DNA of 53,693 nucleotides, from UHGV virus genome UHGV-0129084. One strand, 5' to 3'. This document shows positions 37,750 to 38,482 of this stretch, piece after piece. Every line of letters starts with the position of its first letter. Position 1 is the first letter of the stretch. The notes below the pieces were generated by a model. It searched no databases, was not told where the DNA came from, and worked only from the letters and a program-made list of their open reading frames with translations. Both the position numbers and the translations under genes were made by a program. The DNA comes from a virus.

Positions 37750-37826
37750 ACAGCGTTGAGCGGTCTGGTTTATGTTAGCGGAGTCTTAATCTGGGTGATT
37801 AAAAGGCCAAACCGCTCAACGCTGTG
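37750..37826 (-). other. Long stem-loop (perfect 16-bp stem, 45-nt loop) abutting the tRNA-like gene
   Basis: CACAGCGTTGAGCGGT (37750-37765) pairs exactly with ACCGCTCAACGCTGTG (37811-37826). Confidence 0.5.
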
Positions 37827-37828
37827 TC

Positions 37829-37915
37829 TGGCGGAGAGTAATGGAATCGAACCATCATCGTTTGCACAATGGGACGGATTTCAAGACCGCTTGAGCACCA
37901 TGCTCCCTACTCTCC
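37829..37915 (-). tRNA. Divergent tRNA-like gene (type II, anticodon region reads UGA/Ser); possibly a pseudo-tRNA
   Basis: Hand-folded: 7-bp acceptor stem GGAGAGT/ACTCTCC, discriminator G and encoded CCA, D-stem GAGC/GCTC, T-arm GATGG-TTCGATT-CCATT, long variable arm; anticodon stem has a U-U mismatch. Confidence 0.4.
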
Positions 37916-38015
37916 AGCTATTGTGATGGTCGGTGCTGAACTCCGACACAGGGTTGTAGCAAGCCCCGCAAAGCGCGCACTACTGTAGTTGCGGCACATC
38001 AGCCTGTGCATTCAT

Positions 38016-38094
38016 CACAACGGTAAGATCACTACCTTTCGACCAGTCATTGTGCACATGAACGACGATTAACCGTAATGATCTTATCGTTGTG
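38016..38094 (-). other. Conserved long stem-loop element 1 in the tRNA cluster
   Basis: CACAACGGTAAGATCA (38016-38031) pairs with TGATCTTATCGTTGTG (38079-38094), one G-U. Confidence 0.5.
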
Positions 38095-38145
38095 TTGTGA
38101 AGCCAGATGCTTATCTTCTGGTTGCTTCAAAGAGCTGCACTTCCT

Positions 38146-38234
38146 CACAACGGTAAGAGCACTGGTCTGACTCTATCGATTTACGGGCTTGTGGGTCAGT
38201 ATCGCCGATTCGCCCAATGCTCTTACCTGTTGTG
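38146..38234 (-). other. Conserved long stem-loop element 2, abutting tRNA-Thr
   Basis: CACAACGGTAAGAGCA (38146-38161) pairs with TGCTCTTACCTGTTGTG (38218-38234); relative to element 1 the stem carries a compensatory change (ATC->AGC paired with GAT->GCT). Confidence 0.5.
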
Positions 38235-38235
38235 T

Positions 38236-38311
38236 TGGTGCCGGTTAACGGGATCGAACCGCTGACATCCTGCTTACAAGGCAGGCGCTCTACCAACTGA
38301 GCTAAACCGGC
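38236..38311 (-). tRNA. tRNA-Thr (anticodon UGU)
   Basis: Hand-folded 76 nt: acceptor GCCGGTT/AACCGGC, D-arm GCTC..GAGC, anticodon stem CCTGC/GCAGG with loop CTTGTAA, T-arm AGCGG-TTCGATC-CCGTT, encoded CCA. Confidence 0.8.
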
Positions 38312-38315
38312 AATT

Positions 38316-38402
38316 TGGTGGGGAGTGATGGAGTCGAACCACCCGAGTCGCAATGACAGTAGATTTACAGTCTACCCCGCTGCCCCTACGGACTAACTCC
38401 CC
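38316..38402 (-). tRNA. tRNA-Tyr (anticodon GUA), type II with long variable arm
   Basis: Hand-folded 87 nt: acceptor GGGGAGT/ACTCCCC, anticodon stem GTAGA/TCTAC with loop CTGTAAA, T-arm GGTGG-TTCGACT-CCATC, encoded CCA; D-arm pairing less regular. Confidence 0.7.
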
Positions 38403-38407
38403 TAAAT

Positions 38408-38482
38408 TGGCGATGGTGGGTGGATTCGAACCACCGACCAGTTGGTTAACAGCCAACTGCTCTACCGCTGAGCTACACCATC
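38408..38482 (-). tRNA. tRNA-Asn (anticodon GUU)
   Basis: Hand-folded 75 nt: acceptor GATGGTG/CACCATC, D-arm GCTC..GAGC, anticodon stem GTTGG/CCAAC with loop CTGTTAA, T-arm GGTGG-TTCGAAT-CCACC, encoded CCA. Confidence 0.8.

Follow-up and report, generated by a model that had tools for sequence, protein, structure and literature searches.

The 53,693-nucleotide (nt) virus genome UHGV-0129084, called the window here at its full length, carries in and around its transfer RNA (tRNA) cluster four paralogous hairpins, HP1 to HP4, that belong to a single sequence family shared by unrelated phages. The family is marked by CACAAC...GUUGUG ends, a helix of about 20 base pairs (bp) and hypervariable loops. 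It is near certain that its structure in the tRNA-sense RNA is real and under selection. On the basis of helix length, position and precedent, we favour, at about even confidence, the reading that they serve as processing hairpins of the RNase III type within the untranslated parts of phage transcripts. An earlier reading of this DNA, made from its letters alone and referred to below as the sequence-only reading, had also proposed processing substrates, and this part of its proposal is the one that we would favour, on the grounds just named.

Four paralogous hairpins in the window

The hairpins, the tRNAs and the coupled elements described below are all read on the minus strand. The hairpins are:

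37749..37826, minus strand: HP1, CACAGC/GCUGUG subtype, 20-bp helix; -41.2 kcal/mol, z = -10.4
38016..38094, minus strand: HP2, helix of 7 + 12 bp; -32.2 kcal/mol, z = -4.5
38146..38234, minus strand: HP3, helix of 6 bp + bulged A + 14 bp, U.G at position 17; -37.3 kcal/mol, z = -5.6
38749..38870, minus strand: HP4, 20-bp helix with an 82-nt loop; -47.8 kcal/mol, z = -6.9; inverted repeat I4

Three of them are present where the sequence-only reading had placed stem-loops (folding z from -4.5 to -10.4), and for HP1, HP2 and HP3 the real sequence folds better than every shuffle. That reading had given the stems as 16 bp long. They are indeed conserved, but their real length is about 20 bp; in HP1, for which a perfect 16-bp stem had been described, 16 perfect bp are followed by a U.G and then by 3 bp more. 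The paralogy of HP2 and HP3 with a compensatory base-pair change was confirmed as a T-A to G-C swap. HP4, a fourth paralog upstream of tRNA-Asn, lies beyond the range then covered. The left arms of the paralogs align as CACARCGKTRAG..., and every right arm goes with its own left arm. All four hairpins have CACARY...RYUGUG ends and a helix of about 20 bp, and begin 0-2 nt past a structure that forms an RNA 3' end. A chance origin is excluded, because the CACARCG..CGYTGTG pattern is expected 0.04 times per window and homologues number in the hundreds, with at least 120 loci per scan (see below). None of HP1 to HP4 is followed by a U-run, so they are not intrinsic terminators, and none of the hairpin 3' ends, which read GUUGUG, carries CCA.

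The stem folds in the tRNA-sense RNA and is held at about 20 bp

Pairs were counted by script, as the MAFFT alignment A2 of concatenated arms misaligned the bulged and unbulged types against each other. In a set of 23 distinct arm pairs, positions 1-20 are nearly always paired and position 21 is paired in about half, which places a sharp end of the helix at position 20. Compensatory changes were observed at 12 of the 20 stem positions, and G.U exceeds A.C by 38:3 on the tRNA-sense strand. When only the outer helix was counted and orientation was set solely by the adjacent tRNA or by the neighbouring three-helix element CE (see below), the numbers were 59 G.U and 2 A.C. The compensatory changes together with the G.U excess support folding of the tRNA-sense RNA, and uphold the earlier argument that stem conservation with a compensatory change reflects function at the RNA level and not chance. 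It follows that the sequence drifts but the helix stays close to 20 bp in length. The drift has limits: position 17 is U.G in 16 of the 23 arm pairs. Other subfamilies have CACAGC or CACAAU ends.

The family is spread over enterobacterial phages and includes a lambda member

Family members were found in P1, D6, SSU5-like plasmids, 9NA-like and phAPEC8-like phages and lambdoid prophages. Copies of HP2 (78% identity) lie within a Phapecoctavirus tRNA array and a copy of HP3 (75% identity) in the 9NA-like phage PJ16; in P1, D6, RCS47, SJ46, Sashavirus and P22-like phages, the BLAST match consists of the HP2-HP3 spacer and the adjoining arm ends (81-97% identity). When viral contigs were scanned by pattern, the spacer element and one hairpin subfamily each turned up at 120 loci or more. 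A 17-mer scan of bacterial genomes gave true hairpins in 18 of 120 matches, the other 102 being chance matches without a hairpin; the bacterial-genome hairpins are from Yersinia, Serratia, Rahnella, Klebsiella, Pantoea, Kluyvera and Superficieibacter. Hairpins were also seen on very short or low-coverage contigs in assemblies of the unrelated bacteria Psychrobacter, Algoriphagus, Tardiphaga and Oceanobacillus (L247, L293, L301, L338, L339 and similar loci), which looks like contamination with lambda DNA.

The lambda member lies at 44,787-44,862, 7 nt past the U-run of the terminator tR'. Its arms are identical to those of HP3 at 39 of 40 positions and share the bulged A and the U.G at position 17, while its loop is unrelated. 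It is the longest regular helix noted in a fold of the late leader and would span +201 to +276 if the late transcript starts, as we assume, at 44,587. The GenBank and RefSeq records list no RNA feature for lambda 44,787-44,941 (L234 388-542); their sole annotation there is the hypothetical orf-64 (44,621-44,815), which extends over the first 29 nt of the hairpin. The hairpin family thus reaches beyond tRNA clusters, with members placed after terminators and tRNA remnants as well, lambda included.

The annotation of P1 places two open reading frames (ORFs), upl and plp ('putative lipoprotein'), opposite the tRNAs on the plus strand (L002 2876-3445), with plp directly over hairpins and CE; both may be spurious.

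The hairpins and CE of the window gave no match to the Rfam 15 covariance models (including YrlA, RtT, DicF and tmRNA) at E up to 5, and searches of lambda, P1 and other loci gave no family match at E up to 1. An Rfam identity for the elements was accordingly dropped: apart from tRNAs, neither the gathering nor a permissive threshold gave more than weak chance matches, and YrlA, RtT, DicF and C4 were absent. Full-text literature searched with the hairpin and CE core sequences yielded unrelated primers or nothing, and literature on the P1 ban operon and the transcriptome of P1 was likewise uninformative.

Hairpins follow structures that define RNA 3' ends

The tRNA genes of the window are:

38408..38482, minus strand: tRNA-Asn (GUU); ARAGORN; Rfam tRNA model 75.5 bits
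38316..38402, minus strand: tRNA-Tyr (GUA); ARAGORN; Rfam tRNA model 39.7 bits
38236..38311, minus strand: tRNA-Thr (UGU), CCA encoded; ARAGORN; Rfam tRNA model 73.1 bits
37829..37915, minus strand: tRNA-Ser (UGA), divergent; ARAGORN; Rfam tRNA-Sec model only, 41.1 bits, under the gathering score; called tRNA-Ser by RefSeq

ARAGORN, a standard tool, thus calls four tRNAs, all on the minus strand, and the RefSeq annotation includes all four. tRNA-Asn, tRNA-Tyr and tRNA-Thr are arranged head-to-tail, as the sequence-only reading had it with spacers of 4-5 nt; the ARAGORN spacers are 5 and 4 nt, and the Rfam tRNA model agrees on these three. The gene that had been called divergent and tRNA-like is tRNA-Ser, which reaches only the tRNA-Sec model at a sub-threshold 41 bits. 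For phage D6, the annotators also recorded that tRNAscan-SE gave no amino acid for its tRNA.

HP3 begins 1 nt past the CCA of tRNA-Thr and HP1 follows tRNA-Ser after a 2-nt gap, both as previously described, and HP4 is preceded by a GC minihelix (38872-38890) plus A. The same placements recur elsewhere. A tRNA-Thr of this type stands upstream of family hairpins in 22 distinct contexts, 8 further distinct hairpin sequences, from 7 viral-contig loci, are of the HP1 subtype and come after tRNA-Ser, and about half of one hairpin set adjoin a tRNA 3' end at -2 to +2 nt (tRNA-Thr, tRNA-Ser or tRNA-Asn). Neighbours were counted in 122 distinct contexts of the GGTAAG subfamily. On the upstream side, 27 contexts have a tRNA 3' end, 35 a terminator-like hairpin with a U-run, 24 a GC minihelix and 36 something else, many of the last, judged by eye, having an imperfect hairpin that ends beside the family hairpin. 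Downstream, the neighbour is CE in 33, the domain XE (see below) in 33, a lambda-type sequence in 7, a tRNA 5' end without spacer in 2 (0 nt to tRNA-Arg at L139 and L227) and something else in 47.

The GC minihelices look like internally deleted tRNA-Thr genes, because they retain the tRNA-Thr acceptor stem (GCCGG...CCGGC), often with ACCA. The rtT repeats of E. coli tyrT-tyrV are units downstream of tRNA genes, each of which opens with a tRNA 3'-end fragment. The minihelices resemble them in keeping the tRNA-Thr acceptor stem plus (A)CCA; in contrast to rtT, the units here give no Rfam RtT match, are hairpin-based and are spread over many phages.

Both in the window, where no gene is annotated in about 37610-39260, and in the 122 contexts, the hairpins sit in untranslated spacer between functional RNA units. 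Their constant position there, directly past a 3'-end-forming structure, the missing annotation and the unconstrained loops would also suit a passive structure that insulates the folding of the adjacent tRNA or terminator, keeps Rho from loading and blocks 3' exonucleases. We think this unlikely: a short GC-rich stem would do for such a role, which leaves the fixed 20 bp, the conserved ends, the U.G and the alternative pairing described next unexplained.

The 3' end of the hairpin can pair into a downstream domain

Three of the hairpins are coupled to a downstream domain:

38090..38160, minus strand: CE, three-helix element with closing helix GUUGUGA/UCACAAC; covariance model R1, 88 bits, E = 1.6e-26
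37920..38015, minus strand: XE domain, comprising a conserved GUGAAUGCRCAGGCUGAUGYGC hairpin, other structure, a tRNA-Thr-derived acceptor minihelix (37929-37947) + CA, and CACAAU (37925-37920)
38691..38754, minus strand: CE2, hairpin (14-bp stem) that overlaps HP4 in the terminal GUUGUG of the latter; inverted repeat I9

The 58-nt spacer between HP2 and HP3, which is not a hairpin, is the most widely conserved piece of the region shared by P1 and the window. CE is a motif of about 58 nt with the invariant segments GAAUUGCAG and CCAGAAGAUAAGC. In an alignment of 31 distinct CE copies, three helices are supported, with 90% of cells paired and double changes in 9 of 17 pairs; none of 500 shuffles reached the observed values, and slid registers paired in 28-48%. 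The CE covariance model finds one copy in the window, at 38160-38090, and CE itself has no match in Rfam. Other copies lie at L005 2501-2558, L087, L092, L061 and further loci.

The 5' strand of the CE closing helix is also the last 6 nt of HP3. XE, which is 95% identical in P1, Ro157c2YLVW and CMS-2020a, has a 9-mer containing CACAAU that can pair with the terminal GUUGUG of HP2 plus the 3 following nt (GUUGUGAUG), and HP4 and CE2 show the same alternative-pairing layout as HP3 and CE. Two partners are open to the last 6-9 nt of a hairpin (b, GUUGUG...): the 5' end of the same hairpin (a, CACAAC), and a CACAAC copy farther downstream (c), with which they would close the next domain. The energies of the two states, obtained from forced-pairing folds, are:

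HP3/CE: a-b -46.5, b-c -46.9 kcal/mol
HP2/XE: a-b -58.5, b-c -57.2 kcal/mol
HP4/CE2: a-b -61.1, b-c -60.3 kcal/mol
lambda: a-b -45.1, b-c -49.9 kcal/mol

The two states are close to isoenergetic in each of the four. A 9/9 downstream partner within 170 nt is present in 60% of contexts, versus 19% of shuffled controls. The downstream CACAAC partner helix in lambda is GUUGUGCUG/CAGCACAAC. N-leader forms have the same three-part layout with unrelated sequences, CCAAAG/CUUUGG/CCAAAG and CCAGAACC/GGUUUUGG/CCUAAACC.

In lambdoid prophages, a lone CE stands atop a stem of 16-24 bp, with a boxB hairpin of the lambda, P22 or phage 21 type on one side and the beginning of an N-like gene on the other. The flanks of this stem, GCUUUGGG...CACCAAAG, match those of the lambda N-leader hairpin, which we take to be an RNase III site. 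Among complete E. coli genomes, only 6 carry this class B form of CE and none has it annotated. Given its strong covariation, the lack of an Rfam entry and its fixed place before N-like antiterminator genes, CE is a candidate new regulatory RNA of the lysis-lysogeny control region. An identity of CE with the put-type antiterminator RNA of HK022 was considered and dropped: put consists of two long stems in a V shape without a closing helix, the comparison being with its described architecture and not with a printed sequence. In PJ16 and Sasha (L003 and L006, about 2440-2470, tRNA-sense), a hairpin GAUAAGGAGGUGAUCCUUAUC stands right after CE, and 13 nt of it are complementary to the 3' end of 16S ribosomal RNA.

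The repeated CACAAC(A) also raises the idea that these copies sponge GcvB, a small RNA of the host, as the prophage anti-small RNA AgvB does: the R1 seed of GcvB has CACAACA as its consensus target, and AgvB makes use of this motif (PMC4104026). HP3 opens with CACAACA right past the tRNA, and six CACAAC copies occur on the minus strand of the 1.65-kb region. There is also precedent for tRNA trailers that act as sponges, namely 3'ETS-leuZ. Most of the CACAAC copies, however, are inside 20-bp helices (CACAGC in HP1), and GUUGUG is equally numerous, as expected of hairpin ends; an Hfq-type terminator tail is absent, complementarity beyond the hexamer appears not to be conserved across subfamilies, and both the CACAGC and CACAAU subfamilies and the lambdoid N-leader form with its unrelated sequences depart from the motif. 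We regard GcvB sponging as highly improbable.

The hairpins as putative RNase III processing sites

In the reading that we favour, the hairpins would punctuate long untranslated stretches of Enterobacterales phage transcripts, each starting 0-2 nt past a structure that defines an RNA 3' end, be it a tRNA, a decayed acceptor minihelix of tRNA-Thr or a read-through intrinsic terminator. Host RNase III would cut the helix of about 20 bp, and the cut would part the upstream tRNA or leader from the downstream RNA. Exonucleases would then trim the short 3' trailer on the tRNA back to CCA. We infer that the freed last 6-9 nt (GUUGUG...) could pair with the CACAAC copy 30-160 nt downstream and close CE, XE or CE2, and that the downstream RNA would thereby keep a structured 5' end.

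We favour RNase III because the helix is fixed at about 20 bp whatever its sequence or loop, whereas a block to exonucleases or an insulator needs no set length. The catalytic valley of RNase III takes about 22 bp of double-stranded RNA (PMC6212723), and the helix measured here on the tRNA-sense strand is about 20 bp. RNase III-dependent cuts occur beside E. coli tRNA genes (PMC6212723), and in metY-nusA-infB transcripts RNase III cleavage is described as freeing the tRNA (Regnier & Grunberg-Manago 1989, as cited in PMC5371410). The metY hairpin lies downstream of its tRNA, as the hairpins here do, and its cleavage releases that tRNA, again according to the citing text (PMC5371410). More generally, the RNase III hairpins of the lambda N leader, the T7 early R sites and metY-nusA-infB are likewise helices of about 20 bp that lie in untranslated spacer and part one functional unit from the next. 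The lambda hairpin distal to tR' has the same family sequence and the same downstream CACAAC partner layout as those in the window, except that it follows a terminator and not a tRNA.

Cleavage in this family is nonetheless putative, and it differs from known RNase III sites in that its stem is conserved across unrelated phages, which is unusual, its loops are hypervariable and often tRNA-like, and its 3' end takes part in an alternative helix. Several observations weigh against the RNase III reading. The stem sequence is kept beyond the need of a length ruler (the CACAAC ends, the U.G at position 17 and the bulged A). Of 93 loops, 18 contain a T-loop-like hairpin (GKTCRANNC flanked by complementary arms), versus 1.2 expected, and these hairpins have at least 8 different sequences. 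RNase III sites of the lambda late transcript were mapped in vivo (Daniels et al. 1988, of which the title is cited in PMC7547250), and their placement within the 44,787-44,862 hairpin is unproven. The tie of the hairpin family to the N-leader stem is indirect, as it runs via CE. A promoter and terminator scan of 37500-39700 returned no sigma-70-like promoter, the same scan having missed the evident terminator at 37652-37675. We infer transcription of the hairpin and tRNA region solely from gene orientation: in the annotated pCP53-113k locus (L001), the genes near the tRNA region are all on the minus strand except one. Finally, a plain cleavage site would not account for the conserved ends with the U.G, for the tRNA-like arms in the loops or for the way in which whole loops are replaced.

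As a general kind, phage hairpins that a host RNase cuts during processing are already known. New here are a single sequence family common to unrelated phages, the tightness with which it is coupled to tRNA ends and remnants, its bistable connection with the domains downstream, and the CE motif. If the RNase III reading is true, one module would order the maturation of tRNAs and untranslated leaders in lambda, P1, SSU5-like phage-plasmids and 9NA-like and phAPEC8-like phages, giving a testable rule for the processing of phage tRNA clusters. It would also account for the stretch of the lambda late leader that has no RNA annotation in the GenBank and RefSeq records examined, and it would cast doubt on upl and plp of P1, two ORFs that overlie RNA structures of the opposite strand.

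Hypervariable loops and a possible function of excised hairpins

Simple cleavage sites leave three things unexplained: that the alternative pairing is nearly isoenergetic, that the loops are hypervariable and that tRNA-like arms are enriched in them. In one subfamily, 93 distinct hairpins fall into 53 unrelated loop clusters with 66 arm pairs, and the close relatives Sasha and PJ16 have near-identical stems with wholly different loops. The T-loop-like hairpins, about 15-fold enriched and exemplified by GGGUUCGAAUCCC and AGAGUUCGACUCUCU, are found in the loops at L090, L135, L143, L148, L164, L195, L205, L209 and others, often directly beside the 3' or 5' arm; beside the 3' arm they are often stacked, as in tRNA. 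A complete tRNA was found inside none of the 93 loops.

Because conserved ends with the U.G, tRNA-like arms and loop replacement are unexplained by plain cleavage, some probability stays with excised hairpins being functional RNAs. They might be discrete, stable, trans-acting small RNAs excised by tRNA-processing enzymes (RNase P at the following tRNA, 3' processing at the preceding one), with the blunt 20-bp stem as a protein handle and the hypervariable, often tRNA-like loop as the working part, in the role of a decoy for tRNA-binding or double-stranded-RNA-sensing host factors or defence nucleases, or of an antisense or sponge RNA. Hairpin ends that meet tRNA ends on both sides at some loci (0 nt to the tRNA-Arg 5' end, -2 to +2 nt to 3' ends) are consistent with this, as are the 53 loop clusters, the T-loop-like enrichment, stem conservation beyond pairing need and the full loop swap between the near-identical Sasha and PJ16. 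On the other hand, a blunt 20-bp helix is an ideal RNase III substrate and would be expected to be unstable, only about 20% of the loops are tRNA-like, neither YrlA nor any other Rfam family matches, no protein partner co-occurs across unrelated phages, and many copies stand after terminators or tRNA remnants with no RNase P site following. We therefore rate excised stable RNAs as rather unlikely.

The sequence-only reading had compared the stem-loops to the small stable RNAs known from the tRNA region of T4. Two of these, species 1 and 2, are non-tRNA structured RNAs that lie within a phage tRNA cluster and are co-transcribed with it, and in this they resemble the hairpins here. The comparison holds as an analogy only: the hairpins lack a 3' CCA, no sequence relation to the T4 RNAs and no homology to described RNA families was found, and the family extends beyond tRNA clusters.

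A wider proposal, to which we give a similarly low probability, is that the hairpins and CE or XE together are undescribed, horizontally spreading bistable RNAs, in which processing would flip the fold and free tRNA-like trans-acting RNAs, for example as decoys against defences that target tRNA or sense double-stranded RNA. The loops of these RNAs would be hypervariable, and the elements, placed in leader and tRNA transcripts of enterobacterial phages, would then amount to a novel type of RNA device and not to mere RNase III punctuation.

Gene order, variation by whole units and neighbouring features

The window matches E. coli phage-plasmids of the SSU5/Cyrano/CMS-2020a type and is itself an SSU5/Cyrano-like one, and 37600-38900 is 100% identical to pCP53-113k. 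On the minus strand, the order is minihelix, HP4, CE2, an unassigned stretch (38690-38483), tRNA-Asn, tRNA-Tyr and tRNA-Thr, followed by HP3, CE, HP2, XE with its minihelix, CACAAU, tRNA-Ser, HP1 and a terminator:

37652..37675, minus strand: intrinsic terminator at the end of the non-coding unit, GGGGCUUCGGCCCC then UUUUUU, read from the sequence

Cyrano lacks HP3-CE-HP2-XE, and its tRNA-Ser is joined to tRNA-Thr at an ATTGTG/GTTGTG junction; relatives thus vary by entire units. Such variation could point to DNA-level sites, that is, recombination linkers or folded single-strand sites like integron attC, which would swap tRNA genes and small modules among phages. A tRNA with its hairpin resembles a gene with its attC cassette end, and attC sites, too, lie 3' of a small gene and are imperfect palindromes (60-150 bp) whose ends are conserved and whose centre varies, with a bulged base; the elements here are imperfect dyads of 68-156 bp with a bulge and variable centres. 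The Cyrano junction lies at (A/G)TTGTG repeats, a tyrosine recombinase gene is 2 kb away, and a G.T excess on one strand would also suit the folding of single-stranded DNA. Unlike attC, these sites do not have the core consensus RYYYAAC/GTTRRRY (HP1 has AGC/GCT and other members AAT/ATT), there is no integron integrase, and placement is set at the RNA level, 0-2 nt from tRNA ends and on the sense strand only. An attC identity was rejected on this count, UCACAAC/GUUGUGU having 1 mismatch to GTTRRRY and 2 to RYYYAAC. Moreover, P1, lambda and the 9NA-like and phAPEC8-like phages share no recombinase, and homologous recombination between repeated arms explains the gain and loss of units equally well. 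A DNA-level function appears improbable to us, and both it and GcvB sponging fit the data less well than the RNase III reading.

Weak matches to the transfer-messenger RNA (tmRNA) model recur beside family hairpins or phage tRNA clusters, at 39085-39266 (minus strand) in the window and at L002 3941-4045, L195 10995-11130 and L143 2092-2260 elsewhere. In both the window and P1 they sit upstream of tRNAs, and the P1 match (3941-4045) overlaps the beginning of an annotated 'dicF-like region' (4025-4126). These weak matches may be further tRNA-like elements.

An insertion sequence of the IS3 family at about 36320-37545 (ORFs 36329-36667, HTH_Tnp_1, and 36694-37512, rve) splits a Gp49-family gene that is intact in pCP53-113k. 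On the other side of the region, a long hairpin, HP5 (38942-39030, minus strand; 5+7+13 bp, z = -5.9), has arms (AUGACGUAACAGGAUGGGCGGU...) unrelated to the CACAAC family.

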